DNA of 64,000 nucleotides from an uncultured Gammaproteobacteria bacterium. Lineage in GTDB: Bacteria; Patescibacteriota; Microgenomatia; CAZETR01; Amesbacteraceae. The translations under genes and the position numbers were made by a program. A model generated the notes under the pieces. The model was not told where the DNA came from. It did no database searches and saw only the letters and a list, made by a program, of their open reading frames with translations. The DNA is taken from assembly GCA_964356225.1 (NCBI GenBank), contig CAYHGA010000001.1:29573-93572 (forward strand), read 5' to 3'. Positions 5,085 through 63,786 of the stretch are shown piece by piece. The stretch's first letter is position 1, and each line of letters opens with the position of its first letter.

Positions 5085-5735
5085 TTAATTTACCAGTTCG
5101 GCGCGGGCGACGAAGCGGCGGAGGTAGGTGCCCAGGGGGACGCAAGTGATAAGGGTGAGCTCGTTTTTATCATAGCGCTGGGCCAGGACTTCGATTTGGG
5201 AAGGGTCGACTTCGGTAGTGTTGCGCACTACATATTTATAGGTCACGCCGTCGTATTGGATGGTAATGGCATCGCCGACTTTAATTTTGGGGAGAGGATT
5301 AAAAATGGAAATGGGGTCATTAGGTTTGTAGAGAGCGGGTAAAGTAGAATGGCCAAAAATAACGGTGTTGCCATAATCTCCAGGAAGGGCCGTGCCAGAA
5401 AAGTGAATGGCATTTTTTTTCAAATCTGTGCCATTGATTTCTACAGGAACATCGCGAAGACCGAGCTTGGGTATAGATAGTGTGTAGTAGCGGACGCGGC
5501 TGACAGTGGGAGTAGAACTGGAAGCAGGAAACCAGGTGGTGGATTGAGTGTAATCTGGAGTGGTGATTCCTAAAACGCTGGCGACAAAAGGTACCGGAAC
5601 CAGGGCAACAGCAGTGGGATCTAAGAGGCGGGGACGAAGACTGAAACTCAACTGAGAAAGGCCAATGGGAACGATGACGCTGACAAGGAGAACTAAACCC
5701 ACTACTACAAGAGAGAGGGAGAGAAAACGGCGCAT
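5085..5735 (-). CDS. Sortase-family transpeptidase
   Basis: N-terminal signal anchor. Catalytic His (IFGHST), TLITC active-site Cys motif and a downstream Arg. 216 aa. Confidence 0.8.
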   Translation of the reverse strand: MRRFLSLSLVVVGLVLLVSVIVPIGLSQLSFSLRPRLLDPTAVALVPVPFVASVLGITTPDYTQSTTWFPASSSTPTVSRVRYYTLSIPKLGLRDVPVEINGTDLKKNAIHFSGTALPGDYGNTVIFGHSTLPALYKPNDPISIFNPLPKIKVGDAITIQYDGVTYKYVVRNTTEVDPSQIEVLAQRYDKNELTLITCVPLGTYLRRFVARAELVN

Positions 5736-9551: not shown

Positions 9552-9634
9552 ACCCCTATTTTACATCAACGCTCCCAATAACTCCCTCTTACTCTCCGCA
9601 TAGCTTAATGAATAACTATGATTAGATTTACTAA

Positions 9635-11057: not shown

Positions 11058-11099
11058 TTATGTTGCAAATAGGGGTGAGAAAGTAGATAATAGCAAGTA

Positions 11100-12374
11100 A
11101 TGGATCAACTTATTCCAACTATTACGGCAGAACCTCCTAAAACTAACTGGTTACTATTTTTGTTGGTGGGAATAGTTATTTTGAGTATGGGAATTGGGAT
11201 TGGATTATTTTTGGCAAAAAATATTTATCCGCCTTTGCAAAGTCTGCCCGCTTCAACTCCTTCTCCAACCCCAATCGCCGACCCCACCGCCAACTGGAAA
11301 ACATATACAATTGAAAAATTTGGAATCCAATTTAAACTTCCAAGCAAACTAAGCACTCTCGGGGATCTGGATATAAAAGAATGTGCTGGCGAAAAAGGCA
11401 TGGAATTTAGCGCCACACTACCCTCCAACAAATCATCCGGATATCTCATTTCCGTAGTCTATGCGGGAGGAGGATGTGCCGCACATAATCTATTCAGTAT
11501 GGGTGCAGTATCTTCTGATTATGAAGCCGGAAGAAGCAGGAGATTTACCGATACAAATGGGTACGTTTCCAAAACCGGAACATATTATTGCGTTGGCCCC
11601 GGTGCGGTCAGAAATGATGAAGTTCCGAGCCATCTCGCAAAAGAAATGGTTTCTAAAAATGGAGTTACCGTGTTGAGGATCATGGGTGAAGATGAATCCT
11701 ATGGAACTTGGCCAAAACTCTGTACTCCCGGCAGTGGCAAGATAGGAGCCTTAGTTAATCTTTCCAATAATAAAACGTTCCCGGGAATTGCAATCCAAAT
11801 GGATGTGACAGATCAACTTTCAGAAAACCTATTTGACCAAATCCTCTCCACGTTTAAATTCACGGGTGTCTCGGTCACTCCAACGCCAACTCCAACTCCA
11901 ACCATCACGCCAACCTCTAATCCAAAGACAACATATATCGTTCCCACTAGCTGGAAAAGACTTACCACCCAAAGTGGCCTGAATCTGTGTTTGCCACCCA
12001 AATGGGAAGTTGAGGCCTACGACCACCTTATTTTTAATCGGGATGAGGGATACAAACCGAGCATTACCTATATTACAAACCTTCCTTATTCAGGTGGCTC
12101 ACGGCGTGAAGCGTATTTTGCCTATTGGGTACAGGAATATCCGGATGTAAAGCAATTAGTTTCCGTAGCGGACACCGATATAAACGGAAATTCCGCCCTG
12201 ACTATCTATCCGGCGAACTCTTCTGACCCCAAGACATCCCCCGAGGGGTTAACGGTAGTCTGGTTTTCCGCCGGAAAACTATGGAAAGCGGGCCTGTCTG
12301 GTTGGAATATGACCAACGCCTCGCAAACGTCTTTTCTGAAGGACTTTTACACGATGATTAGCTGTAGCTTCTAA
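11100..12374 (+). CDS. Membrane-anchored secreted protein, paralog A (signal anchor, DPTANWKTYT motif, TP linker)
   Basis: N-terminal TM helix, TPSPTPIADPTANWKTYT, an internal TPTPTPTPTITPT linker and the QILSTFKF motif shared with the 13324..14019 protein. Confidence 0.6.
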   Translation: MDQLIPTITAEPPKTNWLLFLLVGIVILSMGIGIGLFLAKNIYPPLQSLPASTPSPTPIADPTANWKTYTIEKFGIQFKLPSKLSTLGDLDIKECAGEKGMEFSATLPSNKSSGYLISVVYAGGGCAAHNLFSMGAVSSDYEAGRSRRFTDTNGYVSKTGTYYCVGPGAVRNDEVPSHLAKEMVSKNGVTVLRIMGEDESYGTWPKLCTPGSGKIGALVNLSNNKTFPGIAIQMDVTDQLSENLFDQILSTFKFTGVSVTPTPTPTPTITPTSNPKTTYIVPTSWKRLTTQSGLNLCLPPKWEVEAYDHLIFNRDEGYKPSITYITNLPYSGGSRREAYFAYWVQEYPDVKQLVSVADTDINGNSALTIYPANSSDPKTSPEGLTVVWFSAGKLWKAGLSGWNMTNASQTSFLKDFYTMISCSF

Positions 12375-12421
12375 GTAACCGGCACTCACTAATCTGTCGT
12401 AGTTTGGGGTATAATTGAGAT

Positions 12422-12667
12422 ATGAGCTCTACCAGACCATATTTTTTGTGGGATTATGATTTGACCGAGAATGACGTCAGGAGGATTCTGCGTGGGGAAA
12501 ATCAAACAGACAAGATTTGGATTATGTCGAGGATTCTGGAAAGCGCCAAGTTTGAAGATGTTTGGAAATATACAACCTTGTCTGATGTCAGATCGATGAT
12601 GCCGATATTAAAAATCAAAAAACCTATCCGTCAAGCCTGGGAACGGGCCTTAACAATATGGCAGTAA
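12422..12667 (+). CDS. Small protein resembling the C-terminal domain of the AbiEi-like antitoxin (truncated antitoxin?)
   Basis: YFLWDYDLTENDVRRIL...MSRILE aligns by eye with FLFGSRFNWTVFTAADMQEFKEI...MSKILQYL at the C-terminus of the 10374..11057 protein. A TATAAT sits directly upstream, and the ORF overlaps the following NTase gene by 10 nt. Confidence 0.4.
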   Translation: MSSTRPYFLWDYDLTENDVRRILRGENQTDKIWIMSRILESAKFEDVWKYTTLSDVRSMMPILKIKKPIRQAWERALTIWQ

Positions 12668-13320
12668 ATTACGTACTCCAAGACAAATTTTTGAATTTAT
12701 TTTTTTTCGGCCGTTTTGCAGCGGATTTTTATCTGACGGGCGGTACAGCTCTGGTACGATTTTATTTTCAGCACCGCGAAAGTGTAGATTTGGATTTGTT
12801 TAGCCAAAATCAACAGTTGGATTTTTCGGCTGTAAATTTAGAGGTTGAACGTATTGGCCGTGAGTTAAAACTAATAACTATCAAACAAGTGACCACGAAC
12901 ACTTTTTTGCAATTTATATTTGAAAGTACAGAGGGAGATACATTGAAGGTGGATGTAGTTAAGGATATTCCGGTACATTTTGGAGAGTTTAAACAAGAGG
13001 GTAAAGTGAGATTGGACTCATTGGAAAATATAGGTTCAAATAAAATCACAGCTATTTTTGGCCGGACTGATCACAAAGATTTTATTGATTTATATTACAT
13101 TTTAAATAAGACAGATTTTACATTCGAACATTTGGTTTCGCTGGCTAAGCAGAAAGATTTGGGGTTAACCGAATTTTATCTGGCCAATTCGATTGATCAA
13201 ATTGAGCAGACTTCACAAATGCCGGTCTTACTAAAACCACTTGATATAAAGAAATACAACGAATTTTACAAAAAACTTTCCCGGGATTTATTTTTAAAAA
13301 TCAAACCAGAAGATAAATAA
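12658..13320 (+). CDS. AbiEii-family nucleotidyltransferase, second copy
   Basis: FYLTGGTALVRFYFQHRESVDLDLF carries the same GGT..R.S.DLD signature. Confidence 0.7.
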   Translation: MAVNYVLQDKFLNLFFFGRFAADFYLTGGTALVRFYFQHRESVDLDLFSQNQQLDFSAVNLEVERIGRELKLITIKQVTTNTFLQFIFESTEGDTLKVDVVKDIPVHFGEFKQEGKVRLDSLENIGSNKITAIFGRTDHKDFIDLYYILNKTDFTFEHLVSLAKQKDLGLTEFYLANSIDQIEQTSQMPVLLKPLDIKKYNEFYKKLSRDLFLKIKPEDK

Positions 13321-13323
13321 TCT

Positions 13324-14019
13324 ATGGATCAACCTATTCCAACTATTTCTCCGGTCGCCCCATCTCCCAAAACCAACTGGCTATTATTTTTGTTGACAGG
13401 AGTTGTGATTTTATTGGTTGGTATCACTGCCGGGCTTGTGATCGGAAAGTATATTTATGCTCCCAAACCCACCCCAACGGCCGACCCCACCGCCAACTGG
13501 AAAACATATACCAGTAATAAATATGATTATCAATTCAAATATCCCCAAATTCCACCCGAGGCCTCCAGCGCATTTAAATTTTCACTTAACGACAAACTGT
13601 CTGAACTATGGGGACCAGACAATCTAATTTTTAGAATTGAAGTATTTGAAAATATCAACAATCCGCAACTTTGGTGGGAAAATCAAGCTATTGAACCATT
13701 TACTAAACTGGCGGTGAACAACTTTGACTTCACAGAGACAACGCTAAACAGCTATCCAGGATACTCTGCTCAGGTCAAAACAGAATTTCAAGAACCAAAA
13801 AAGGTGTTTAGAACGTATGTGCTTAGCAATAATGATAATGTGTATCTAATTCACTCAGATTATGGTCAGTGGAGTAACCAAATCCTCTCCACGTTTAAGT
13901 TTGTGGAGCAGGCAACGCCGAAGCCGACGTGCAAGCCCAGACCGGCTTGCTTAGATACTTCACCCCGCTGTCTGCTTCCGGAAACATCTGACATGTGTCC
14001 ACCAAATCAGAAGTTATAA
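13324..14019 (+). CDS. Membrane-anchored secreted protein, paralog B
   Basis: The N-terminus (MDQPIPTISPVAPSPKTNWLLFLL...DPTANWKTYT) and the C-terminal NQILSTFKF are near-identical in pattern to the 11100..12374 protein. It starts 4 nt after the NTase stop. Confidence 0.6.
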   Translation: MDQPIPTISPVAPSPKTNWLLFLLTGVVILLVGITAGLVIGKYIYAPKPTPTADPTANWKTYTSNKYDYQFKYPQIPPEASSAFKFSLNDKLSELWGPDNLIFRIEVFENINNPQLWWENQAIEPFTKLAVNNFDFTETTLNSYPGYSAQVKTEFQEPKKVFRTYVLSNNDNVYLIHSDYGQWSNQILSTFKFVEQATPKPTCKPRPACLDTSPRCLLPETSDMCPPNQKL

Positions 14020-14403
14020 CGAATGGGAGTGTGATTTAAGCCAGGATGAGATTTCTTTGACTCCTGGTTTGGAATTGTCGACATAAACCATAAAATCTGC
14101 GGCTTCTTTGCGGTTTGATTTGAGGTGATAACCATTATCCCAGAGAAATTTATGAGTTACGGTCCAAGCTGTGCGTTTGTTGCCGTCGGTAAACGGGTGA
14201 TTTAAGCAAACGGATTGCAGGAGGGCCGCGGCTTTGGCAAAAAGGGTGGGGTAAAGATCTTGACCAGCGTAGGTAGCTTTGGGCCGCTCGAGGGCAGAAT
14301 GGAGGAGAGCAAAATCGCGAACCGCTGCTTTGGTGCCAGCCCTGACAATGATTATTTCATGAATACGATAGGCCTCTTCTATATTAACGATCTGCCAGTT
14401 CAT
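14014..14403 (-). CDS. doc: Doc (death-on-curing) Fic-family toxin
   Basis: HPFTDGNKRTA matches the Doc variant of the Fic motif, HxFx(D/N)GNKR. Confidence 0.8.
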   Translation of the reverse strand: MNWQIVNIEEAYRIHEIIIVRAGTKAAVRDFALLHSALERPKATYAGQDLYPTLFAKAAALLQSVCLNHPFTDGNKRTAWTVTHKFLWDNGYHLKSNRKEAADFMVYVDNSKPGVKEISSWLKSHSHSL

Positions 14404-14665
14404 CGAGAATTTCGGCGTTCTCTTTCATAAAAACGCTAAGCCATTTTTGAAAACCTGCGTCGGATTTTCTAATTTTGGGAGAAGTTTTTTTTATAACAAT
14501 GGTAGTATCGTCTGCTGTCCCCACTAAGACCTTGCTACCAATTTTGAGATTGAGATCGGCCAGGACATCGCTAGGGATAGCGATAACTTGACTATTGCCG
14601 GCTTTGAAAATAGTTTGGAGTTGCATTGTACTAACAATGTTAGTACATAAAATTTTGCTTGTCAA
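14384..14665 (-). CDS. AbrB/MazE/SpoVT-fold antitoxin (Phd functional equivalent)
   Basis: IFKAGNSQVIAIPSDVLADLNLKIGSKV is a swapped-hairpin AbrB-type DNA-binding domain. The ORF overlaps the doc start. Confidence 0.65.
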   Translation of the reverse strand: MTSKILCTNIVSTMQLQTIFKAGNSQVIAIPSDVLADLNLKIGSKVLVGTADDTTIVIKKTSPKIRKSDAGFQKWLSVFMKENAEILDELADR

Positions 14666-31017: not shown

Positions 31018-33225
31018 TTGTACTGGCAATTGTACCCCAAGACTGCTAATGATGCCAGTGTGTTAAAATTACGTGCTATGGCTGCGGATATAAAGACTAC
31101 TAATAGGATAGTGCCGTTGGATCGGGTGCGGAATATTGGCATAATTGCCCATATCGACGCCGGAAAAACGACGACTACGGAGCGGATTTTGTTTTATACC
31201 GGTAAATCCTACAAGATCGGAGATATTGATGAAGGCGACACGCAAATGGACTGGATGGAACAGGAGCGGGAACGGGGAATTACCATTGTCTCTGCGGCCA
31301 CGACGACGTTTTGGACTGTAAACGACCCGGTTTCCCCTGTCGAGACCGGCTCGTACCGGATTAATATCATTGACACCCCGGGGCATGTGGACTTTACGGC
31401 GGAAGTAGAAAGATCTTTGCGGGTTTTGGACGGAGCAGTGACTGTACTGGATGCAGAAGAAACTGTGCAATCGCAGACGGAAACGGTGTGGCGGCAGGCG
31501 GATAAATATAAAGTGCCGCGGATAATTTTTGTGAATAAGGTGGATAAGCTGGGAGCGAATTTTGAAGGGACAGTAAAAGCCGTTATCGATAGATTGGGGG
31601 CCAACCCGGCAGTGATGGCTTATCCGATCGGAGCTGAAAATACTTTCCGGGGGGTGGTCTTGCTACTGGAAAGAAAAGCTTTGATTTGGCAGGGTGACGA
31701 GACCGGGGCCAAGTTTGTGGAAGAAGAAGTGCCAGCAGATATGAAAGAGGTGGTAGAGAAATGGCGGACTAAACTTATCGAGCAAATTTCAGAAACAGAT
31801 GATGGTCTGTTAAACAAATTTCTGGCAGGAGAAGAGCCGGGTATCGCTGAACTGAAAGCAGCACTACGCCGGGCAACGATTGCTTATAAATTGGTGCCGA
31901 TGTATTCCGGAGCCAGCCTTCGCAACAAGGGAGTACAGCCGCTTTTGGACGCGGTCGTAGAATTTTTGCCGTCACCGGTGGATATTGATCATGTCAAAGG
32001 TTTAAACCCTAAAACCGGGGGAGAAGAAATAAGAAAAACCATTAATGAGGAAAAATTTTGCGGGTTGGCTTTTAAGATCCAGACCGATCCCCACGTGGGC
32101 CGGCTGACGTATTTAAGAATTTATTCGGGTAAATTAGAAGCAGGACAGGGTTTGTATAATGCCTCCAAGGATAAAGAAGAACGGATTTCGCGGATGCTTC
32201 TAATGCACGCTAATAAACGGGAAGAGATTGACGCGGCATACGCGGGAGAGATTGTAGCTTTGGTAGGATTACGGGAAACGAGTACAGGACATACTCTGTG
32301 TGACAAAAGCGCACCAATTATACTCGAGTCTATTACGTTTCCAGAACCAGTTATCTCGCTGGCTATTGAGCCAAAAACCAAACAAGATCAGGAAAAGATG
32401 GGGTTGGCTTTGAATAAATTATCCGATGAAGACCCAACTTTCAGGATTAAATCGAATTTGGAAACCGGGCAAACGATTATTTCGGGCATGGGAGAGCTGC
32501 ACTTGGAAATTATTGTGGACCGGATGAAACGGGAATTTGGAGTAGAGGCCGCCACCGGCGCCCCGCAGGTTGCGTATAAAGAAACTATTAGAAAAACCGC
32601 GGAGGCAGAAGGTAAGTACATTAAACAGTCCGGCGGACATGGCCAGTATGGTCACTGCTGGATTAAACTGGAACCCCTTCCCCGGGGCAGCGGGTTTGAG
32701 TTTGAAAATGACATCAAAGGGGGTGCCATTCCTTCTGAATTTATTCCGGCAATTGAAAAAGGAATTAAAGAGGCTATGGAAAACGGAGTCCTGGCAGGGT
32801 TCCCGGCGGTGGATATTAAAATTTCCCTGTATGACGGGACTTATCACGACGTGGACTCTTCGGAGATGGCGTTTAAGATCGCCGGGTCGATGGCTTTTCA
32901 ACACGGAGTGAAGCTGGCTGATCCATGCTTGCTGGAGCCAATTATGAAAGTGGAAGTGTCTACCCCGGAGGAATATATGGGGGACGTAATCGGCGACTTA
33001 TCCAGCAAGCGGGCACAAATTTTGGGAACGGACAAGCGGGGACACCTAACGATCATCAATGCTTACGTGCCTTTAGCTGAACTTTCTGGATATTCCACCA
33101 AGCTGCGGTCTATGTCTGCCGGCCGGGCCACCTATTATATGGAGCCGTCACACTACGAAGAGGTACCGAAGAATATTGCCGAGAACATCATTGCTAAATC
33201 TGGTAAAGTAGCGGCAAATGCTTAA
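31018..33225 (+). CDS. fusA: Elongation factor G
   Basis: [15 protein letters not shown] domain plus EF-G domains II–V. The probable start is MAADIK near 31078. Confidence 0.93.
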
Positions 33226-33793
33226 GTGGATTGTCATAATTTTGGTTTTAATAGGCGGAATGATATGGCTGGTAAGTGGACAGGGAAGTTTGCCGGGGGA
33301 AATGGTTGTAGATCAGGGGCGGGAACATTGGGAACACGCCAAACTGGATGAGTTTAAGTACAATTCTAATCCCCCGGTTTCCGGGCCCCATGATGTCGAT
33401 TGGATCCGCCCCGGGATTTACGGCGAGGTGCAGGATAAATATAAATTACTGCACTCACTGGAGCATGGATATATCGTCGCCCACTATAATTGTGGGCTCC
33501 AAATTTCTAATTTTCAATTTTTAATTTTTAATGCTAGTGCACATGAAGATAATGGAGTAGCAACGGATAGCGGGACAGTTAAAACTAATTGCGCGCTGGG
33601 GCAGACTTTGGGAGATTTTGCCAAGAAAATGACACTGTTTAAAATAATCGTGGCGCCAAATCCGACAATTGATAAACCCATAATTATGACGGCGTGGGGC
33701 AGAATGCTAAAAATGGACGCTTGGGACGAAAAGCAGGCGGAAAAGTTTGTAAAAGCCTTCCGCAATAAAGGCCCAGAAGCTACAATGGAGTAG
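33218..33793 (+). CDS. DUF3105-family membrane protein
   Basis: N-terminal TM helix, then NPPVSGPHD ... [19 protein letters not shown]. The HxxEHG motif is the DUF3105 signature. Confidence 0.55.
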
Positions 33794-33794
33794 T

Positions 33795-34355
33795 ATGGCT
33801 GAACCGGGGTACAAGTCACTACTTTCCTATAAGCTTGCTCAAATTGCTTTTGATTTGGGATGGGGGTTTGTGCCCCTTTACTACTGTAAATACGAAGACA
33901 ACCGCCAACGCGATCAGATCAAACAGGCTTTACGCTCGTTAAAACAAAACATCGTAGAGGGTTCTTCCGAAAGAAGTCTTTCTACTAAACTAAAGCTTTA
34001 CGATGTAGCCAAAGCCTCAGGCATGGAAGCTCGAGAAGATTTTGAGGATATTCTGCGACGTATGGGGCTATCGCGCTGGAGCAAAGATGATTCCCGACTG
34101 GCTAAAACCCGGAAGATTTTTGAGTCTTCTCCTTCTATTTCCCCCTCACTTCTCCCTATTTCCCTCTGGGTAACCAAGAAGGAAAAAGAAGGAAGAGAGG
34201 GATTAGAGGAAATAGTAAATTATGAACTGGATCTGCTAATCCGCTGTGGATATTTACTAGATCAGCAAATCCGGGCGGTAGAGAAAAAGCACATGGAAGA
34301 GGGCGGATACTCCGAAAAACTACTTAGAAAGCGCTTAGAGTATCGCAGATCGTGA
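33795..34355 (+). CDS. Four-helix-bundle protein (23S rRNA IVS-protein-like), extended C-terminus
   Basis: QNIVEGSSERSLSTKLKLYDVAKASGMEAREDFE resembles the NIAEG...ARGS..E block of TIGR02436-type four-helix-bundle proteins. Confidence 0.4.
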   Translation: MAEPGYKSLLSYKLAQIAFDLGWGFVPLYYCKYEDNRQRDQIKQALRSLKQNIVEGSSERSLSTKLKLYDVAKASGMEAREDFEDILRRMGLSRWSKDDSRLAKTRKIFESSPSISPSLLPISLWVTKKEKEGREGLEEIVNYELDLLIRCGYLLDQQIRAVEKKHMEEGGYSEKLLRKRLEYRRS

Positions 34356-54377: not shown

Positions 54378-56018
54378 CTAATTTTGATCCGGGGCGGAGA
54401 GGATGACGGGCTCGGCGGGGACGGGAGATAAGATGTTTTTCCACTGGGCAATTCGTTTAATTAAATCGATGAAAGTTGCTAATTCGGGAATTTTGAAAAA
54501 CGCAGACAGGGAAAAATAAACCGATAAGCCAATGAGGGTAGTGATCCCCGTCAAGAGAAGTAAAGGAAGAGTACGGGTGGTATCAAAAACAAATTGATCC
54601 AGTAAACGCATGGGTATCCATAGGAAAAGGCCGGTGACGAGGCTGGTAAAAATCATTTTGGCCAGAGGGATAAAAACTTTATGCGGGGCCACTGAAACAC
54701 GGTGGTATAACAGCCAGGAAAGAACCAGAGTTTCCAAAATGGCGGTGGTAGAGATGGCTACCGCTATTCCCAGAATTCCCCACCCTAACCAGGTGACGGC
54801 TAATATGGATAATGTCGAACTAAAAATGGCGGCGATTATGCCGACTATAAGCGGGGTGCGGGTATCGTGCAGGGCATAAAAACCGCGAATGACTAACTGC
54901 ATGACGGCGTAAAAAGCGGCCGAAGCACAGAGAATGGCCAGTGTTTTCCCGGTCAAAAGAGTGGCGGTCCAAGGAAAAGTTTTGGCACCAAAAATGATAC
55001 GGACGATGGGGATCCTCAAGATAATGAACAAGGTGCTAAGAGGAAGGGCCATAAAAGCGATTTGCAAAAAGGAGGAAACCAGAGTGCGCCTGAATTGGTC
55101 CAGATCGGAATGGGCCGCTTCTTTGGAAAGCTGGGGAAAGGCGGCCTGACCAATGGTAACTCCAAAGAGAGAAGTGGGAATAGTAAAAAGGAGGCGGGAA
55201 GCATTAAGAAGGGACAAAGAGCCGGAAGCCAGAAGCGAGGCTAGAGTGACGGCCACAAATTGCTCTATTTGATCAATGCCCAGAGCCAGGACTCGGGGGG
55301 GCATAAGACGGCCTATTTCACGAACCCCGGGGTGGAAAAAATCCAAAGATAAAGAGGGGCGAAAACCTAGGCGGAAAGCCAAAGGCAATTGGATAAACAT
55401 ATGCAAAATTGCTCCCAGGACAACTCCCAAGGCCGGACCGAGGATGCCCAGGGTGGGAGAAAGGAAGACGATGCCGGCGATAATCCCCAGGTTGTAGGCT
55501 ACGGGGGCCAAGGCAGGGATAAGAAAACGCTGGTGAGATTGGATGATACCGGTCAAAAAACCGGAAATGGAAAAGAATATTTGAGCCACAAGCATGATCC
55601 GCAAAAGTTGAACCATGACACTAATTTGGGAAACGGTGAAGCCGGGAGCAATCAGCCGAGAGAGGGGGTATGCAAATATAAAGATGACGGTCGAGAGAAG
55701 GGTAAAAACAAGAATAATCAGATTCATGGTGGTGGAGGTCATAGCCCAGGCTTCTTTTTCGTTCTTGGCCAGATACTTGTTAAAGGTGGGAATAAAGGCG
55801 GCAGAGAGGGAACCGATGACTAGAAGCTGAAAAATAGTATCCGGGATAACAAAGGCGGCATAGTAGACGTCAAGCAGCGGGGATTGAGTGCTAAAAAAAG
55901 AGGAAATCAGCAGGCGGGTCTTGACCAAACCAATGAGATGAGACAGGCTATAAGTGGCCATGATAATGAAGGCGGCAGAAAGAATGTGGTTTTGGCGCCG
56001 GAAGAAAATATCCCGCAT
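54378..56018 (-). CDS. murJ: Lipid II flippase MurJ/MviN
   Basis: A 546-aa polytopic protein with a MOP-superfamily MurJ pattern. The true start may be the internal Met of MATYSL. Confidence 0.85.
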   Translation of the reverse strand: MRDIFFRRQNHILSAAFIIMATYSLSHLIGLVKTRLLISSFFSTQSPLLDVYYAAFVIPDTIFQLLVIGSLSAAFIPTFNKYLAKNEKEAWAMTSTTMNLIILVFTLLSTVIFIFAYPLSRLIAPGFTVSQISVMVQLLRIMLVAQIFFSISGFLTGIIQSHQRFLIPALAPVAYNLGIIAGIVFLSPTLGILGPALGVVLGAILHMFIQLPLAFRLGFRPSLSLDFFHPGVREIGRLMPPRVLALGIDQIEQFVAVTLASLLASGSLSLLNASRLLFTIPTSLFGVTIGQAAFPQLSKEAAHSDLDQFRRTLVSSFLQIAFMALPLSTLFIILRIPIVRIIFGAKTFPWTATLLTGKTLAILCASAAFYAVMQLVIRGFYALHDTRTPLIVGIIAAIFSSTLSILAVTWLGWGILGIAVAISTTAILETLVLSWLLYHRVSVAPHKVFIPLAKMIFTSLVTGLFLWIPMRLLDQFVFDTTRTLPLLLLTGITTLIGLSVYFSLSAFFKIPELATFIDLIKRIAQWKNILSPVPAEPVILSAPDQN

Positions 56019-56030
56019 GTGTGATATTAT

Positions 56031-56279
56031 ATGGCGGATATGCCTATAACTAAAGGTGCAATCAGGAAGCTACGGGCGGATAAAGGTAAGGCCCGGGTTA
56101 ATAACGTAATAAAACGGGCGTTTAGGGAATCCGTGTCTAAGATGCGCAAGCATCCGACCGTAAAAAATTTGGTGGAGGTCTACCGGAAACTGGACCGGGC
56201 GGCTAAATCTAAAGTGATTCACAAGAATAAAGCGAATCGGTTGAAATCTAGACTGTCCAAGTTGCTGAAAAAGAAGTAG
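56031..56279 (+). CDS. rpsT: 30S ribosomal protein S20
   Basis: 82-aa S20. Confidence 0.9.
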   Translation: MADMPITKGAIRKLRADKGKARVNNVIKRAFRESVSKMRKHPTVKNLVEVYRKLDRAAKSKVIHKNKANRLKSRLSKLLKKK

Positions 56280-56296: not shown

Positions 56297-58114
56297 ATGC
56301 TACGAAAAGGATTTGTTGGTATCGAGTTGGCAGTAATGGTGGTGATGGTAATGGGGCTGATCGCTGGAACAAAGCAAATTTCAGATCTCACCCAAAAGTT
56401 CCTAATCAAGAACAAAGCGGCTGGACAAGTTACTTGTTCTTCAAATTGCGCATCTGGTTCCAGTGGTGAATATAATTTCTGCTACAACGAATGCGTTCCG
56501 GGGAAAACCGGTTACTCCCGGCCCATTGGTTGTAATTCCAGTGGTTGGGTGAGAGGAAATGATCAAGTTGATTCGGCTTGCGGCTCCGCACCCGCGCCTA
56601 CTCCGGTATCCCCAGGTCCCACTCCGACTGGCGCTCCAACTCCAGGTGATGGACCTTACGGTAAAAATTGGGGGAATACGTGTAACGGTATAAATTATGG
56701 GGGCTGCAGTCCTGGTTACCGTTGCGTAGGCAATCTTTGTAGTGGATATAACTGTTTTAAGCTTGATTCGTCATGTGGGGGAGTACCACCGTCAACTATC
56801 TGTCAACCTGGCCATTGTGATTACGGAGGATCAAACCTAGGCTGGAGAAAGTGCAATGGCAACGGCACGGCTTACGACGGAAATAAATACACAGATAATA
56901 CTTGCTCCACTGTCGCCGGTGGAGGACCTACCCCAACTCCAAAATCCGGTGCGACACCTACGCCAAGACCTACTCCGACTCCACCTTCGACATGTGCTCA
57001 ATATTACAGTCTCGCTGATTGTAATAGTGCTTCATGCTCTTGGTATAACTGTGGGGGCAAGTCTCCGGGCTGTTTCCCGGGTGGGACGTTGATGGCGGTT
57101 GCCTGTCCCACCACCCCAACCCCAACGCCGACCCCAAGACCTACTCCAACCCCGACTCCTGTTGTGGATTGTACCAAGATTCCCTACTCTGACTGTAATA
57201 CTTCACTTAACAATGGAAACTCTCGGTGTGCTTGGTACAACTGTTATGATGGAACAGCTGGCTGTTTTTCTAAAGGTACGCCAGATACTGTTGCTTGTCC
57301 AAACCTCGCTCCAACGCCAACCCCAACGCCAACCCCAAGACCTACTCCCACCCCGACCCCAAAACCCACGCCCACTCCGACTCCAACCCCTAAATCCGAA
57401 CCTAGATATAATTATGATCTCTCTACTTATCGCTGTGTTGAGGCTCAAGATGGATATTATCCTTCTTTCTCCGCTTGTGAACAGAACTATGCTGTACTAA
57501 ATGTGCCATACTGTAAGTCGGATGGGTTTCTGTGTTATGCAGCAAATACCGATGGATCTTGTAAGACTACAATACAATGTTATCCAGGAACTGTTTGCAC
57601 AGGCTCACCAAGATTCGCTAAATGTGCTCTCGCTTCTTCTCCCCCCACTCCCACTCCAACTCCGACGCCTGCTGCTGAGAATAACGGCTGGACTGGTCAA
57701 TACTGTGCTGGAGGGCTCCTTGGATCTCCGAAGAGTATCTGCAAACCCGGTCTGCCTCCTACATGCGAGCCCTGCAATAGTTGCTCCGGAAATTACGGAT
57801 ACGCCGTAGGCGCTGGTTGTTCTCCAATTTCAACCCCAACTCCAACCCCAACTCCAACTCCTACGCCCGTCGCTGGCCAAGGCTGGACTAATCAATACTG
57901 CACAGGAGGGTCTTCGAGAAGTATCTGCACTTTTAGTTTCCCTCCTACATGTTCCCCTTGCAACAGTTGTTCCGGAAATATTGGGTATGCCGTGTGCAAC
58001 GGTTCTTCGCTAATTCCTACGACCGATTCTACTCCCGCGGTTGCTCCTAAGACCCCTCGTCCTTTCTACTGCATAAACTTCTTTGGCTGGAACCCATGTG
58101 GAGTTGTCCAGTAG
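56297..58114 (+). CDS. Type IV pilin-like protein with a large C-terminal region of Cys-rich modules separated by (TP)n linkers
   Basis: Class III signal peptide MLRKG|FVGIELAVMVVMVMGLIAG (cleavage-site Gly, Phe at +1, Glu at +5). The following ~580 aa carry more than 60 Cys in repeated modules (DC..C.WYNC...GCF..GT...VACP twice; GW..QYC.GG......C.....PPTC.PCNSCSGN.GYAV twice) joined by TPTPTP runs. The ORF track's 56279 start is a GTG overlapping the rpsT stop. Confidence 0.6.
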   Translation: MLRKGFVGIELAVMVVMVMGLIAGTKQISDLTQKFLIKNKAAGQVTCSSNCASGSSGEYNFCYNECVPGKTGYSRPIGCNSSGWVRGNDQVDSACGSAPAPTPVSPGPTPTGAPTPGDGPYGKNWGNTCNGINYGGCSPGYRCVGNLCSGYNCFKLDSSCGGVPPSTICQPGHCDYGGSNLGWRKCNGNGTAYDGNKYTDNTCSTVAGGGPTPTPKSGATPTPRPTPTPPSTCAQYYSLADCNSASCSWYNCGGKSPGCFPGGTLMAVACPTTPTPTPTPRPTPTPTPVVDCTKIPYSDCNTSLNNGNSRCAWYNCYDGTAGCFSKGTPDTVACPNLAPTPTPTPTPRPTPTPTPKPTPTPTPTPKSEPRYNYDLSTYRCVEAQDGYYPSFSACEQNYAVLNVPYCKSDGFLCYAANTDGSCKTTIQCYPGTVCTGSPRFAKCALASSPPTPTPTPTPAAENNGWTGQYCAGGLLGSPKSICKPGLPPTCEPCNSCSGNYGYAVGAGCSPISTPTPTPTPTPTPVAGQGWTNQYCTGGSSRSICTFSFPPTCSPCNSCSGNIGYAVCNGSSLIPTTDSTPAVAPKTPRPFYCINFFGWNPCGVVQ

Positions 58115-58159
58115 ATTGTAAATACTACTAAAGCCGGAAATAATTGTTATACTAAGAAC

Positions 58160-58687
58160 ATGGCTGCCCTGGGTAGTATTAATTTGTTGCCTAAGTCTGA
58201 TTTTGAGGCTTCTTTCTGGGGGAAATTTTTGAAGTGGGGACTGACCACCGGGAGATACTTAGTGATTTTGACGGAGCTAGTAGTAATCGCCGCGTTTTTA
58301 TCCAGATTTAAATTGGATTGGGATTATGCGGCAGTAAGAGACAGAATTAATGGAAAAAGAGCGGTGTTGACGGCGATGGCCGAAACGGAAAGAAGATTTA
58401 GATTGGCCCAGAGCAGGCTGGGAGCAGCCGGAAAAATTATGGGGGGGCAATTAGAAGCGGCGAAGGAAATCGAAAAAGTGACAGCCAAAGTTCCCGCGGG
58501 AGTGGTGTTAACTGATGTGACCGTGTCTGACAAAATGATAACGGTTTCGGGAAGCGCCAGCAGTGCGGATAAATTTGGAATCTTTTTGTCCCGTTTGACG
58601 GCAAGCGGTGACTGGAAAAGCGTAGGGGTGAAAAGTTTATCAGATGACGGACAAGCGGGATTTAAATATTTAATATGGCTCAATTAG
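58160..58687 (+). CDS. PilN-like pilus assembly protein
   Basis: N-terminal INLLP signature, a single TM helix and a periplasmic domain. Confidence 0.6.
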   Translation: MAALGSINLLPKSDFEASFWGKFLKWGLTTGRYLVILTELVVIAAFLSRFKLDWDYAAVRDRINGKRAVLTAMAETERRFRLAQSRLGAAGKIMGGQLEAAKEIEKVTAKVPAGVVLTDVTVSDKMITVSGSASSADKFGIFLSRLTASGDWKSVGVKSLSDDGQAGFKYLIWLN

Positions 58688-59235
58688 ATTACAAAAGCAG
58701 TTTGGCCCAATACCGCAGATATTTGGCGGCGGTGCGAGAGCAACCCTTATTTGCCGCCAGTTTGGGGTTGGTGCTGTCTCTGACGTTAATAATAATTCTG
58801 GTGTTAGCAGCCCTGCGGCCAACTTTAGTGACTATTGCCTCACTGCTAGGAAATATTCAGCAACAAAGCGATGTGGAGAAAAGACTGGACAAAAAAATTG
58901 CAGAGATAACTGCGGCCCAAGCAGAGTATTTGAAAAACGAATCCAGGTTGGGTGTGCTGGATGAAGCATTGCCGGTGGGCCAGAAATATGCGGCCTGGGG
59001 AATGAGATTGGAGACCGCCGCTTCTGAAAGCGGTGTGAAAGTGATGGAATGGTCGCTTCTGGATGGAAAAGATTTCAGTGTTTCTTTAAGCGGAGACGTG
59101 GCGGGATTGAAACGGTTTTTGGCCACTATGGAAAACTTGCGGCGGTTGGTGGAAGTCAAGAGTATACAGTTTGCTAAAGAAAAAGAACTGACGTTAGTTG
59201 TGAAGGGAGTCTTAAAATCATATGAAGAAAAATAA
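58675..59235 (+). CDS. PilO-like pilus assembly protein
   Basis: TM helix plus a coiled-coil and PilO-like periplasmic domain. It overlaps the PilN-like gene. Confidence 0.45.
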   Translation: MAQLDYKSSLAQYRRYLAAVREQPLFAASLGLVLSLTLIIILVLAALRPTLVTIASLLGNIQQQSDVEKRLDKKIAEITAAQAEYLKNESRLGVLDEALPVGQKYAAWGMRLETAASESGVKVMEWSLLDGKDFSVSLSGDVAGLKRFLATMENLRRLVEVKSIQFAKEKELTLVVKGVLKSYEEK

Positions 59236-59422
59236 AACTGACCGGCAAGTTGTGGTAGTGCTGGTTATGACTTTGATTACGCTGGTAGCCTGGGTGGGGT
59301 TTGAAGTTTACCGGACATATACTCTGGTAAACATCCCCCCAGTTTCCGACAAACTGCTGCTGGAGTTGTCTCCCACGCTGGATATTTCCGTGCTGGAAAA
59401 ATTAGAAAGCAGGACACCATGA
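59222..59422 (+). CDS. Small membrane protein in the pilus locus
   Basis: 66 aa with one TM helix, overlapping both neighbouring genes. Confidence 0.35.
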   Translation: MKKNKTDRQVVVVLVMTLITLVAWVGFEVYRTYTLVNIPPVSDKLLLELSPTLDISVLEKLESRTP

Positions 59423-60690
59423 GAAAAAGAGAGCTGACTATTCCTACAATTTTGGGAGTTCTGGCTATAATCGGAGGGCTGATAGGGGGAGTAGTGTTAT
59501 TGAACAAACCATTAAGAGGTTTGGTGGGGGCTAGCCCGGAAGAAACTCCAAAAGAAGTCAAGATTACTAATATTTCCGACACCAGTTTTGTGGTGAGCTG
59601 GGTGACAGACAAATCCACTTCCGGTTATGTCCAATATAACGGAGGATTGGTGGTGTCCGATGACCGGGATCAAGAACGAGGGGAAATCGGAAACTATTTT
59701 ACCCATTTGGTGACTATTAAGGCGCTCAAAGCGGAGACGGGGTACAGTTTTAAAATAGGATCGGGGAAAAGTTTGTATGATAATTCGGGGAAGTTGTATC
59801 AGATAACAACGGCTACCGCAGTAAGCCAGGTTCCGGTAGCGGACGTGGCTTATGGGCAAGTGGTTACAGCCAGCGGTGATCCGGTAGAGGGAGCAATTGT
59901 ATATTTGTCCCTGCCAGGAGCGGTTTCCCAGGCAGCACTAACTAAGTCTTCGGGGTCATGGGTAATTCCAATGGCGGTTGCCAGAAGCGCAGATCTAACT
60001 GGTTATGCGGCTTATGACCGGGAAAAAGAAAAGATCGAAATAACGGTTCAAGCCGGAGCATTGGGAACTTCTGTGGTCAATACTACGACGGGGACGACTA
60101 AGCCGGTGGCAAATATAACTTTGGGGGAAAACAGAAGCGGAGAAACACCGGCACCTACACCGGTAGCGGGATCAAAGTTTTCCCCGGGAGCGCTGGCCAC
60201 TGATACGGGGGAGACTCTGGTGATTTTGACTCCTAAATCCGGGGAAAAAGTTAATTCCCAGAAACCGGAAATTATGGGTAAGGCCCCGGCGGGAAGCAAA
60301 GTGACTATTAAAGTGGAATCTTCCCAATTATTTACCGAGACTTTAACTGCGAGCGAAAATGGGGACTGGACTTATGGAGTTCCGGAAGACTTGGAACCGG
60401 GTGAGCATACGATAACAGTAACTTCGATTATTGATGGGGTAACAAAAACTATTAAGAAAAGTTTTGTGGTGGAAGCGGCGGGAGTTTCCAATGCCCCCGC
60501 CAGAGTGGCCACTCCGTCAGCAACACTAAAACCCACTCCTAAACCGACGCCCACAATTGCTCCAAGGGTGGCTTACCCGTCTACTGAATCCGGGACGCCC
60601 ACGTCCGGTAACTTGACTCCGACTTTAATTTTACTCATACTGGGAGCGGGGCTGGTGTTAGCTGGTGCCACTTCATATAGAAAAATCTAA
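59419..60690 (+). CDS. Membrane-anchored surface protein with FN3-like and Ig-like domains and a C-terminal TM anchor
   Basis: N-terminal signal anchor; KEVKITNISDTSFVVSWVTDKSTSGYVQY is FN3-like; a later Big-like region; C-terminal LTPTLILLILGAGLVLAGATSYRKI. Confidence 0.45.
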   Translation: MRKRELTIPTILGVLAIIGGLIGGVVLLNKPLRGLVGASPEETPKEVKITNISDTSFVVSWVTDKSTSGYVQYNGGLVVSDDRDQERGEIGNYFTHLVTIKALKAETGYSFKIGSGKSLYDNSGKLYQITTATAVSQVPVADVAYGQVVTASGDPVEGAIVYLSLPGAVSQAALTKSSGSWVIPMAVARSADLTGYAAYDREKEKIEITVQAGALGTSVVNTTTGTTKPVANITLGENRSGETPAPTPVAGSKFSPGALATDTGETLVILTPKSGEKVNSQKPEIMGKAPAGSKVTIKVESSQLFTETLTASENGDWTYGVPEDLEPGEHTITVTSIIDGVTKTIKKSFVVEAAGVSNAPARVATPSATLKPTPKPTPTIAPRVAYPSTESGTPTSGNLTPTLILLILGAGLVLAGATSYRKI

Positions 60691-62012
60691 TGGATCCTGT
60701 CCAAGACCCGAAAACTAATTTACCGCCAACGATTATGCCAACGACTGAAGACGTTGTTCCTACTCCCCCACCTACTCCCATATCCCCTCCCTCACCCGTC
60801 CCGATAATTGAGCCCCCAATAGGTCCGGCGCCGGTTCCGGCGAGCGACAGTGGCGACAACGCCCAGATTATAAAACCAAAGGTTAAATGGGGCAAGGGAG
60901 CGCTGATCGGAAGTGTGGCGGCATTGATGGTGCTGGTGGTGGGGTTGGGTTTTGGGTTGTGGCAGATAAGACAAAATCAAAATATAAAACCTTTAAAAGC
61001 AGGGCTTTGTGATTCCACCTCCCCCAATATCACTTGTGTAATTACTGACAACAAATGCGTCTGGAAACCAGATAATTCAGGGGCCTGTCTGGATAACTGG
61101 TATATTCCGGGTACTGAATATTTTTGCGGTGAAGGAGCTCCTGGGCAAACCATAACTTATGGTTGTACGGATGGATATTATCCGACCAAGGCAACTTGTG
61201 ACGCAAGAGACGGGGGAGTTCAAGGATCTAGCGTATGTCAGGGTTCTAGCGGTGGGCCGACGCCGACGCCGACACCGCCGGGGGCGACGTGTAATTCGAC
61301 AACCACAGCGGAAGTAAATATAAACGGGAGTGGATGGACAAGTAGTAATGGGCTAGTGAGACCGGGAGATAGTGTGCAATTTAGAGCGGCACCGGCTGGC
61401 GGGAGAACTGCGCTGCTACTTAATACCACTGGGCAAACGGGCAGCCAGTGTTCAAGCGACCCGGGAGCAGGGGTTGCATGTCCAGGCGGGCCGGTGTTGA
61501 TGGATAACGGTTGGTGGGGAAACTATGTGGGGCAAACTATAAGTGTGAGTGCGTTTCAATTCGGAAGTAACTGGTACACGTCGCTCGGCGGAAGTTGTGA
61601 AGATAGTTTGAGCTTGACGATTGTGCCTATTGGCCCCACTCCGACGCCCACTCCAACACCAATTTCTACCCCGACCCCCACTCCGACGCCCACTCCAACA
61701 CCAACGCCGCCGCCGGGGCCGAGTTCGCAGTGTCAGAGAATGATAGCTATCCGAGGTACGGAGGAAATTGCTTCGGCCAATTGGGTCACCACTTTACAGC
61801 CCGGAGACGTGGTGGTGTTCAGAGGGTTTGCCAGTGCCAGTAACACTACGGTGACGGCAATTAATTTCTCGATTACTATAAATGGCGGAACTCCACAGCA
61901 AATTCCGGGGACTAATTTTCAGCTGGTGGGGGGCGTGTGGCAAGCGGATACGGGATCGATAACTATTGCAGCCGGAAGTTATTCGGTGGTGGCTACCCCG
62001 ATTTACCCATAA
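60690..62012 (+). CDS. Membrane-anchored Cys-rich surface protein with (TP)n linkers
   Basis: Pro-rich N-terminus, a TM helix, Cys-rich modules, and PTPTPTPP and TPTPTPTPISTPTPTPTPTPTPTPPP linkers. Confidence 0.45.
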   Translation: MDPVQDPKTNLPPTIMPTTEDVVPTPPPTPISPPSPVPIIEPPIGPAPVPASDSGDNAQIIKPKVKWGKGALIGSVAALMVLVVGLGFGLWQIRQNQNIKPLKAGLCDSTSPNITCVITDNKCVWKPDNSGACLDNWYIPGTEYFCGEGAPGQTITYGCTDGYYPTKATCDARDGGVQGSSVCQGSSGGPTPTPTPPGATCNSTTTAEVNINGSGWTSSNGLVRPGDSVQFRAAPAGGRTALLLNTTGQTGSQCSSDPGAGVACPGGPVLMDNGWWGNYVGQTISVSAFQFGSNWYTSLGGSCEDSLSLTIVPIGPTPTPTPTPISTPTPTPTPTPTPTPPPGPSSQCQRMIAIRGTEEIASANWVTTLQPGDVVVFRGFASASNTTVTAINFSITINGGTPQQIPGTNFQLVGGVWQADTGSITIAAGSYSVVATPIYP

Positions 62013-62586
62013 TTTTATGGATGCAAAACCACAAATTAATGTTATCAGACCAAAGGGCGGTTTTAGCCTGCCGAAACTGCCTAAACTCAACCCGGTGATG
62101 ATAGTGGTGGCTACGGTGATTTTAGCTCTGGTGTCGGTAATTTCGGCCATACTGCTGTATCAGAAAAAACAAGAGCCAGTGGCGCCGAATGTGGGCGTGC
62201 CCAGCCGGGCAGCGGAAGGAACAGCGTGTGTGGCCAACTTTATAATATCTGCTTCCCCAACTCCTACACCAACTGAAGGACCAACGCCTACCCCAACACC
62301 GACACCCACGCCAACCCCCACGCCGGGATCCGGGAAGCCAAATAATTGTGGTGGAACTTGTGGATCAAATGCCAATTGTGAAGGCGGGCTGTTCTGCTAT
62401 GACACCGGAGTGCAAAAATATTGCCGGAACCCGCAAAATCCAACCAGCGAGACGTGTGCTGGAGCGGCTCCAACACCTACTCCAGCGGCATTGCAACAAG
62501 CTGGAGACGTGATGGGGACGTGGACTGTTTCAATCGCGGGAGCGATATTACTAATACTTGGATCTGTGGTAATGTTTGCGCTATAA
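61966..62586 (+). CDS. Small Cys-rich membrane protein with a TP linker and a C-terminal TM anchor
   Basis: The probable start is MDAKPQ near 62017. It has a TM helix, PTPTPTEGPTPTPTPTPTPTPTPG, the module CGGTCGSNANCEGGLFCYD...C and a C-terminal hydrophobic anchor. Confidence 0.4.
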   Translation: MQPEVIRWWLPRFTHNFMDAKPQINVIRPKGGFSLPKLPKLNPVMIVVATVILALVSVISAILLYQKKQEPVAPNVGVPSRAAEGTACVANFIISASPTPTPTEGPTPTPTPTPTPTPTPGSGKPNNCGGTCGSNANCEGGLFCYDTGVQKYCRNPQNPTSETCAGAAPTPTPAALQQAGDVMGTWTVSIAGAILLILGSVVMFAL

Positions 62587-62589: not shown

Positions 62590-63786
62590 TCAGCGCCAGG
62601 AGGGAAGCCAAAAGTATTGATCGACCAAGGTTTTAGGAAGGTGAATGCCTACCCACATTGGATAAAAATAGATAAAGGCTCCCAGAATTAAGATACTAGA
62701 TGTTATGGTGGCCCATCTGGGCAATTTAGAAAGAGTATAGGCCAAAGCAATGCAGAGAAAAGGGACCGAGGGAAGATAATGATAGAGAAACATAATGCGA
62801 GGAGCGCGGGCCCAGGGGAGCCAGAAAGTTAAATATCCAATCACGATAATTCCCAATTTCCAATCACGTTTTTTCAAGGCGTGATACGCTGTAAAAACAA
62901 TGGCCGGGATGCCCAGCCACCAGAGAATGGGGTTGCCCATACCGTAAATGTTGGCGATTTTATCGCCGGCGTAATCTACAAAGTACCAAACCGGCCGGAG
63001 CATAACAGGCCAAGTCCACCAGGAGGATTGGTAAGTATGAGTGGCTTTGAGGCTAGTGTTGTACCACCACATTTGATTTTGTAATTCCAGGAAATTTTTC
63101 CAGGAGCCGCCGAGAATAAAATATTGAGAATATGAAAGAACATATAAAACTGCAGGAATAAAAATCAACGAAATAAAAATAGAGGGCCATTTGCGAAAGC
63201 GGGTAATATTCTGTAAACCAATCCATGTTCCAAAAACAGCAATGGCGTAAAGGCCTGTCCATTTGGTAGCAATCAAGAGACCGAGAGAAAACGCGAGAGG
63301 GATTAGGTTATAGGTTCTAGGTTTTAGTTGATAGCGAATAAAGGTCCAGAAAGATAGCAGAATGAAAAAGGTGGCGACAATGTCGTTCATATTAATACGC
63401 GATGAAGTAAGAAGCAGGCCATCGAGGGCCGCCAGGGCGGCTGCGAAAAGAGCCCAACGCTTGGAGCTTAGTAAATCACTGGAAATTAAATAAACAAGAT
63501 AAACAACGCCGGTGCCGATTAAAACGTTGGCGATGCGCCAGCCGAAAGAATTGGGGCCAAAAATGAGAATACCGGTGGCGCCCATTAACTTAGCAAGTGG
63601 TGGGTGTGTCCAACCATAAGCGGTACCCGGAGGGGTGGTATGAAACCATTCGTAGGCGTCTTTGTTACCTTTAGCCATTTCCAGAGTAGTAAATGCGTTA
63701 TAGACCTCGTCGAAATAAAAGTTGGGCGGGTAGGAAATATTGAAAACGCGGGTTATAAAAGTAAAGGCTAGAATTAGGCCGAGCAT
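62590..63786 (-). CDS. PMT-family (GT39/PMT_2-like) polyprenol-phosphate-sugar glycosyltransferase
   Basis: The N-terminal loop-1 motif FDEVY and the HPPLAKL block are characteristic of protein O-mannosyltransferase-type GT-C enzymes. It is polytopic, 398 aa. Confidence 0.6.
   Translation of the reverse strand: MLGLILAFTFITRVFNISYPPNFYFDEVYNAFTTLEMAKGNKDAYEWFHTTPPGTAYGWTHPPLAKLMGATGILIFGPNSFGWRIANVLIGTGVVYLVYLISSDLLSSKRWALFAAALAALDGLLLTSSRINMNDIVATFFILLSFWTFIRYQLKPRTYNLIPLAFSLGLLIATKWTGLYAIAVFGTWIGLQNITRFRKWPSIFISLIFIPAVLYVLSYSQYFILGGSWKNFLELQNQMWWYNTSLKATHTYQSSWWTWPVMLRPVWYFVDYAGDKIANIYGMGNPILWWLGIPAIVFTAYHALKKRDWKLGIIVIGYLTFWLPWARAPRIMFLYHYLPSVPFLCIALAYTLSKLPRWATITSSILILGAFIYFYPMWVGIHLPKTLVDQYFWLPSWR

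Follow-up and report, generated by a model that had tools for sequence, protein, structure and literature searches.

A conserved PilN-PilO gene unit next to rpsT and away from pilus motor genes in Microgenomates

The 64-kb stretch of DNA analysed here (contig CAYHGA010000001.1; the window in what follows) comes from an ultra-small groundwater bacterium of the Microgenomates, a branch of the candidate phyla radiation (CPR), whose closest named relatives are Candidatus Amesbacteria. Directly 3' of rpsT it carries seven open reading frames (ORFs), here called g1 to g7, which an initial annotation of the sequence had described as a pilus or adhesin locus. Two of them, g2 and g3, encode PilN and PilO of the type IV pilus (T4P) alignment subcomplex. 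The novelty lies in their fixed association with a 66-aa transmembrane (TM) protein, g4, and a sortase-type FN3/Ig protein, g5, and in the invariant linkage of the unit to rpsT and murJ. Genes for the pilus motor are not found nearby. The reading favoured here, with moderate confidence, is that g2-g5 constitute a genetically uncoupled T4P alignment module, extended by wall-anchored partners and working with machinery that is encoded elsewhere.

PilN, PilO and a small membrane protein

All seven ORFs were confirmed as a co-directional run on the + strand, and as the initial annotation had stated, most of them overlap. The overlaps are 13 nt at g2/g3, 14 nt at g3/g4, 4 nt at g4/g5 and 1 nt at g5/g6, and a gap of 45 nt separates g1 from g2. 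The arrangement, including g1, is not an assembly artefact because the same 6.7-kb region recurs in independent assemblies, with 100% identity in two from Logan and about 99.9% identity in two ENA assemblies of Hainich groundwater. Scans for promoters and terminators returned counts at or below the shuffle expectation.

It is clear that g2 (58160..58687, + strand) encodes PilN. Its product scores 29.4 bits against Pfam PilN (PF05137; cut-off 22.8), and a profile built from 31 family sequences matches the Myxococcus xanthus PilN chain of PDB entry 3jc8 (E=4.8e-7). The protein has a cytoplasmic INLLP motif and one TM segment with an invariant Glu in the middle of the membrane; a long helix then leads to an alpha/beta ectodomain. 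An AlphaFold2 model (predicted local distance difference test, pLDDT, 84.9) has the helix at residues 19-108, followed by a beta-beta-alpha-beta-beta unit. In Foldseek, this model best matches GspL periplasmic domains in the PDB (XcpY, EpsL and PulL), with target-normalised TM-scores (TMt) of 0.70-0.77, and PilO and PulM come next. GspL is the counterpart of PilN in the type II secretion system (T2SS).

One clue to how this protein might be used lies at its N-terminus (MAALGSINLLPK), where residues 7-11 are the INLLP motif that the initial annotation had pointed out. INLLP, VNLLP or a near variant is present in 71 of 80 g2 orthologs, and the N-terminus of the family aligns with RINLLP of the M. 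xanthus protein in 3jc8. In PDB entry 5eou, PilM is seen with PilN residues 1-12 bound. Since the motif has been kept and this structure places PilM on the first residues of PilN, PilM is the partner of g2 that would naturally be inferred, contacted through the INLLP peptide. The most conserved part of the g2 family is the TM and juxtamembrane stretch GRYIVILTELVVIAAFLSRFKLD, which contains the invariant Glu. Conservation in and near the membrane centres on residues 31-53, including Glu39 and FLSRF.

The product of g3 (58675..59235, + strand) is PilO. As a single sequence it scores 21.5 bits against Pfam PilO (PF04350), just under the cut-off of 22, and it has a weak NCBIfam GspM match. A profile of 34 family sequences matches three solved PilO structures, namely 3jc8 (E=4.4e-13), 2rjz (E=7.8e-9) and 5uvr (E=3e-5), and PF04350 is present in most g3 homologs. 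Profile searches over 58160..59422 thus found both families that had been proposed for this interval. The protein has one TM segment at about residues 27-47 in an N-in orientation, a coiled coil and a ferredoxin-like ectodomain. The family shares a cytoplasmic tail, LDYKSSLxRYRRYL, and AL(R/K)PT at the outer end of the TM segment, and conservation is strongest around residues 1-20 and 46-50. Like the conserved membrane stretch of g2, these motifs are additions to the classical PilN/O pattern.

The third gene, g4 (59222..59422, + strand), encodes a bitopic membrane protein of 66 aa that belongs to no known family. It carries a conserved WVGFEVYRAY at the outer TM end (residues 25-34), and phmmer found 59 homologs in related loci. 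It was observed that g2, g3 and g4 are all conserved most strongly in or beside the membrane, and that each of the three TM segments has conserved charged residues within it or adjoining it. Neither g4 nor g5 matches PilP or secretin families in Pfam or NCBIfam at E<=1, and any equivalence of these two proteins to PilP and PilQ would be a positional analogy only.

A four-gene unit without a nearby motor

The initial annotation had found the cassette unusual. For its lineage it is not, because the same arrangement is invariant across Microgenomates. A scan of GTDB recovered relatives in at least 219 species, all of them Microgenomates by title where named, and 80 loci were kept for comparison. 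These are labelled Ames-, Woese-, Shapiro-, Chisholm- and Blackburnbacteria, Microgenomates or Patescibacteria, plus evidently mislabelled bulk metagenome-assembled genomes (MAGs). Together with 9 contexts from metagenome or genome records, the 80 species loci with their ±10 kb flanks make up the approximately 89 related loci referred to below.

The standard Microgenomates layout is murJ (- strand) and rpsT, then PilN, PilO, the small TM protein and the FN3/Ig protein. PilN was detected in all 80 loci by tblastn or phmmer. In 70 of them rpsT lies directly upstream, the distance from start to start typically being 260-450 nt, and murJ is found in 74, on the opposite strand about 1.9-2.2 kb upstream of PilN. 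Judged by ORF position, the order of PilN, a TM ORF of PilO size, a TM ORF of 63-135 aa in the place of g4 and the FN3 protein holds in about 70 of 72 loci. Together with the recurrence of the region in independent assemblies, this conservation puts the genes far beyond chance. The FN3 protein was itself recovered from 76 of the 80 loci by tblastn (92 phmmer matches). In all, gene order was established over roughly 90 loci.

A constant feature is the separation from the motor. Pfam searches of essentially every ORF of at least 120 aa found no PilM, PilB/T, PilC or PilD in the window; the absence of the first three had been noted from the sequence initially. Pseudomonas aeruginosa PilT and PilM, verified as queries against PDB 3jvu and 5eox (750 and 741 bits), gave zero phmmer matches at E<=10 in 97 sequences (1.65 Mb), and the positive control worked. 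A regular expression for the Walker-A motif, run over the window and the related loci, found FtsK alone. Motor genes never occur within 10 kb of a homologous cassette in the approximately 89 loci, and PilM, which a pilMNO(PQ) operon would place next to pilN, was absent within 10 kb of pilN in the window and in those loci. A 407-aa gene divergent from PilN in locus L011 was tried as a PilM candidate and rejected, its translation being a multi-TM GT-C-like membrane protein. The window does, at 5735-7819, encode a 694-aa protein whose N-terminal domain has an FtsA/PilM fold; the gene lies in a conserved non-pilus context, and any link of its product to PilN would be conjectural.

Where, then, might the machinery be? 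Published surveys suggest that PilM, PilB, PilC and PilD would be encoded elsewhere in the source genome. The single T4P locus of a closed Microgenomates genome comprises PilA, minor pilins, PilD, PilB, PilT, PilC and PilM, and PilN and PilO are not listed in it (PMC7143001). Because this locus has PilM and lacks PilN and PilO, the cassette is the obvious supplier of the missing pair. More broadly, CPR as a whole show enrichment of the PilM/N/O/B/C/T families (PMC6744442), a set of 868 Patescibacteria genomes shows good conservation of pilB/T/M/C (PMC12206443), and Patescibacteria MAGs from Hainich encode PilB, PilC, PilM and PilO (PMC8672522). An alignment-complex cassette with its machinery elsewhere, as raised at the outset, is kept as the best reading, and it is from this literature that the presence of distant motor genes is deduced.

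Comparison with known systems brings out what the loci share and where they depart. The PilM-PilN-PilO assembly of type IVa pili (M. xanthus 3jc8, P. aeruginosa 2rjz and 5eou, Thermus thermophilus 2ych) resembles g2 and g3 in homology and topology, and g2 keeps INLLP. However, the Microgenomates genes have no adjacent pilM, pilP or pilQ and lie outside a pilus operon, and the TM segments and cytoplasmic tails are their most conserved parts. The next two genes encode the 66-aa TM protein and the sortase-type FN3/Ig protein rather than PilP and PilQ. Saccharibacteria (TM7x pilM1N1O1 and pilM2N2O2; PMC12206443) and Gram-positive bacteria such as Clostridium likewise combine PilN and PilO with a monoderm-type envelope and no secretin. 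In those bacteria pilM-pilN-pilO sit with pilB/pilC/pilD, whereas pilN-pilO of Microgenomates is detached and rpsT-linked in all the loci examined. The uncoupling also sets Microgenomates apart from Firmicutes and Proteobacteria.

Surface proteins around the module

The conserved fourth gene, g5 (59419..60690, + strand), encodes a secreted FN3/Ig-like protein with Pfam domains fn3/Pur_ac_phosph_N, CarboxypepD_reg and Big_13 (Ig-like) and a TP linker. Its orthologs begin with an N-terminal signal that has a conserved Ala before the mature part. A regular expression finds [LIV]Px[ST]G near the C-terminus in 53 of 72 (e.g., VPVTG, LPESG, LPQSG); a hydrophobic stretch comes next, and the protein ends in a basic tail. 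The last gene of the run, g7 (62017..62586, + strand; translation could also start from a TTG at 61966), encodes 189 aa with an N-terminal TM segment or signal, a (TP)n linker and a 6-Cys module (CGGTCGSNANCxxGLFC...CRNP), 7 Cys in total. Orthologs of g7 end in LPxSG or LPxAG, then TxWPT and a hydrophobic stretch. The initial annotation had the FN3 protein anchored at both ends. Because the g5 and g7 families carry LPXTG-type sortase signals, both are better read as having an N-terminal secretion signal and a C-terminal sortase signal, so that export followed by wall anchoring replaces double anchoring.

The only sortase in the window (5085..5735, - strand; Pfam Sortase E=3.8e-25, NCBIfam sortase_fam 63.4 bits against a cut-off of 39.35) lies 50 kb away and may process the signals of g5 and g7. 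Sortase is reported to be near-ubiquitous in Microgenomates (PMC6744442). Gram-positive LPXTG proteins likewise combine an N-terminal signal with a C-terminal motif that precedes a hydrophobic stretch, and their genomes also encode a sortase. They differ in that g5 and g7 lie beside pilN/pilO in one operon (predicted co-transcription). In addition, the motif is noncanonical in general, it is degenerate in this species, and the g7 type has no basic tail.

Between these two genes lies g6 (60690..62012, + strand), which encodes a 440-aa Cys-rich protein. The N-terminus is Pro-rich and cytoplasmic, and beyond the single TM segment TP linkers connect the ectodomains (13 Cys). The gene is conserved mainly in Amesbacteria-like relatives. 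In the Hainich assembly L003, a G>T change at position 3590 (window 61224) turns g6 codon 179 from GGA into TGA. This nonsense variant splits the gene into ORFs of 178 and 218 aa, a strain-level truncation of a variable surface protein. Genes like g7 were found in 33 of 80 loci by tblastn (66 phmmer matches), nearly always just upstream of a convergent gene for a PMT-family (GT39) protein O-mannosyltransferase. In the window this gene forms the right border (62590..63786, - strand; Pfam PMT, PMT_2 and PMT_4TMC), as it does in 36 of the 80 loci and also in L001, L002, L008, L010, L012 and L014. Nearby genes in relatives also include GT4, PMT_2, DUF2298 and LytR_cpsA_psr. The Thr/Pro linkers of g6 and g7 are probably O-glycosylated by the convergent PMT. 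Since the linker proteins adjoin PMT and envelope genes, O-mannosylation of the linkers and wall attachment are suggested, the former by the precedent of actinobacterial Pmt systems. Attempts to assign known domains to the Cys-rich modules of g1, g6 and g7 gave noise-level Pfam matches only.

One gene of the run stands apart. The first, g1 (56297..58114, + strand), encodes 605 aa from its ATG (a GTG start at 56279 is also possible), with 50 Cys and five (TP)n linkers. It had been called pilin-like and counted with the cassette. The second part of this claim has to be dropped, because g1 is absent from all related loci examined and is present in this species only. In the closest Amesbacteria, too (PilO 81% identical), rpsT and pilN are separated by a spacer of 12 nt where the window has a 1.9-kb insertion carrying g1. 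As a separate observation, the distance from rpsT to the downstream pilN is 1.26 kb in L030 and 3.4 kb in L072, against the usual 0.3 kb or so, with no prepilin-like ORF in either gap. Because of these enlarged gaps, the junction must have taken insertions more than once.

As to the pilin-like character of g1, the evidence is divided. Its N-terminus, MLRKG/FVGIELAVMVVMVMGLIAG, has a leader and motif (MLRKG/FVGIE) followed by 19 hydrophobic residues and fits a class III (prepilin) signal by eye. It is also the sole true match to a strict prepilin regular expression in the window and 89 loci. On the other side, neither Pfam N_methyl (PF07963) nor TIGR02532 matches g1 at E<=10, even when the N-terminal 61 aa are isolated, and the full-length protein has no pilin match in Pfam or NCBIfam. 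A search with residues 1-218 against 1.84 billion representatives found 16 homologs only. They share a Cys module, CSxNCxS..GxYxFCYNECxPG..GYSRxxGC, and GFxxxE occurs in none of the 16. Their N-termini are RGE[IM]xT..., ERGFVQF..., plain signal anchors or a Pro-rich segment plus TM. Because pilin profiles miss g1, and its few homologs share the Cys module without GFxxxE, it is assigned, on sequence grounds, to a small CPR family whose members are modular, Cys-rich surface proteins. Whether it is a true PilD substrate has roughly even odds; PilD was not found in the window. Four of the homologs (P0263, P0265, P0269 and P0270) have a basic stretch, Gly-Glu-[IM]-x-T and a hydrophobic helix (NRGEMATALTIL..., SNRGEITTALAV..., VGEISTLLIF..., HGEISLIITL...), a signal that resembles archaeal-type class III signals and differs from GFxxxE.

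Modular type IV pilins such as Streptococcus sanguinis PilB and PilC (PMC8179133) offer a comparison. Like them, g1 combines a short basic leader that ends in Gly (-1) with Phe at +1, Glu at +5, a hydrophobic helix and large grafted modules. However, g1 is missed by pilin profiles, has no canonical pilin globular domain and occurs in one species only, and homologs of its Cys module carry other anchors. In the favoured reading, g1 is a recent insertion that encodes an adhesin-like protein, whose N-terminus fits a prepilin signal either by chance or by evolution.

The left border of the locus is murJ (54378..56018, - strand), the lipid II flippase gene (Pfam MurJ E=5e-77). It is divergent from rpsT (56031..56279, + strand; Pfam Ribosomal_S20p), which encodes ribosomal protein S20 and is the first gene of the co-directional run. 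Elsewhere in the window, an island of low GC content (8000-14500; 0.40 versus about 0.48) holds AbiEii/AbiEi toxin-antitoxin pairs at 9635-11057 (- strand) and 12658-13320 (+ strand) and a Fic/DOC gene at 14014-14403. It also encodes two paralogous N-terminally anchored proteins outside known families (11100-12374 and 13324-14019) with the common start MDQxIPTI...PKTNWLLFLL. The island is probably a mobile or defence islet. Between fusA and tuf, at 33218-34355, there are unusual inserts in the str operon, namely a DUF3105 protein and a protein that weakly matches 23S_rRNA_IVP (four-helix bundle). The remaining genes are housekeeping genes: rpoB, alaS, ftsK, RNase J, PNPase, infB, nusA, fusA, tuf, the ribosomal protein/secY cluster, dnaK-grpE-hrcA and lepA.

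What the module may do

How might such a module work? The proposal is that g2-g5 are the Microgenomates alignment subcomplex, separated from pilM/pilB/pilC/pilD and fixed downstream of rpsT. The products of g2 and g3, both bitopic and N-in, would pair through their coiled coils and ferredoxin-like ectodomains. The cytoplasmic INLLP peptide of g2 would dock a PilM encoded elsewhere, and PilM would in turn couple the PilN/PilO pair to the PilB/PilC motor and platform. In the membrane, g4 may join PilN and PilO; the sequences of the three proteins hint at a specific three-way TM bundle, and also at a second cytoplasmic partner, for PilO. Following its export, g5 would be attached by sortase to peptidoglycan through the [LIV]Px[ST]G signal. 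The machine, or the pilus it makes, would thus gain an FN3/Ig partner embedded in the wall, although the cell has no outer membrane and neither PilP nor PilQ. The proteins encoded by g6 and g7 would be lineage-variable surface cargo.

Several points weigh against this proposal. Since no motor gene was found near the cassette, its ties to a pilus come down to homology and the INLLP motif. A TM segment as the most conserved part of the protein is not known to be typical of classical PilN. In the window the C-termini of both sortase-type proteins are degenerate: g5 has TPTSG, a hydrophobic stretch and the tail YRKI, and g7 has LQQAG and no basic tail. The neighbours are consistently envelope genes (murJ, PMT, LCP and glycosyltransferases), which would fit a non-pilus role in the envelope equally well. 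Finally, PilN/O homologs have been co-opted for other machines (PMC10823254).

What if this has happened here too? PilN, PilO and g4 could then form a scaffold that displays the sortase substrates g5 and g7 or attaches them to the wall, or that serves envelope biogenesis beside MurJ, PMT and LCP. PilM, if bound at all, would be a cytoplasmic organiser. The motor that is never within 10 kb, the envelope genes that always flank the unit, the conserved partners that are sortase substrates and the unusual conservation of the TM segments and cytoplasmic tails would all be explained, and the PilMNO homologs taken over by flagellar motors as flagellar cages provide a precedent (PMC10823254). Against this reading, the PilM-docking INLLP is retained in 71 of 80 orthologs, and CPR genomes generally retain T4P motor genes. 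Nor is any sortase pathway known that depends on PilN/O. The reported Microgenomates T4P locus that has PilM and lacks PilN/O is a further argument against such a scaffold (PMC7143001). On balance it is regarded as possible but unlikely.

A second alternative keeps the machine and changes its product. A T4P apparatus could act in the manner of a T2SS, as a piston or conduit that moves g5, g6 and g7 (and here g1) through peptidoglycan without making an adhesive pilus. Translational coupling ties the cargo-like genes to pilN/pilO, and pilN, pilO, pilM, pilB2, pilC1 and pilD mutants of Clostridium perfringens secrete less of the Bsa matrix proteins (PMC11580942). The structural evidence is less helpful than it looks. 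It is true that GspL domains (the C-terminal domain) are the best matches of the g2 model and that g3 has its weak GspM match, but GspL/PilN and GspM/PilO are homologous, so this does not discriminate. In a comparison with the T2SS platform itself, GspL has a fused cytoplasmic actin-like domain that g2 does not have; GspC/D/E/F are missing from the surroundings of g2, and the bacterium lacks an outer membrane. The ordinary Sec-type N-terminal signals and the sortase signals of g5-g7 count against the idea, as they suffice in Gram-positive bacteria with no extra machine. It is considered rather improbable.

The weakest alternative, that g2 and g3 are unrelated bitopic proteins of the FtsL/DivIC/FtsB type which mimic PilN and PilO, is the outcome that the initial annotation had named as refuting its own reading. 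It could appeal to their short, single-TM, coiled-coil build and to the g3 Pfam score just under the cut-off, but it is effectively refuted because the family profiles pick out solved PilN and PilO, the fold is that of GspL/PilO/PulM, INLLP is present and no cell-division family matches at E<=1 in Pfam or NCBIfam.

Returning to an alignment module that works with a distant pilus machine, one can speculate further. Perhaps the module is a wall-spanning extension of the T4P in a monoderm-like envelope, in which the FN3/Ig protein, attached by sortase, forms a collar or guide that is embedded in peptidoglycan, is held by the three-TM bundle and does what PilP/PilQ do in diderms. Alternatively, the same structure could be a gate for T2SS-like export of the operon's surface proteins. 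Only limited credence is given to this picture. If it is true, the linkage to rpsT and murJ and the permanent separation from the motor would mean that the unit is regulated together with growth and wall synthesis, and not with the expression of pili.

In CPR/Patescibacteria, whose cells have no secretin, type IV pili are considered a central means of host attachment and DNA uptake. Against this background, it matters that Microgenomates, a branch at superphylum level, encode PilN and PilO apart from the motor and in a fixed four-gene unit. T4P inventories built on gene clusters would miss PilN and PilO in these genomes. The fixed order also makes g4 and g5 candidates for envelope parts of the pilus machine in CPR, and it would link the T4P and sortase pathways. 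If the cassette should instead prove to be independent of pili, it would be the second example of PilN/O co-option after flagellar cages.

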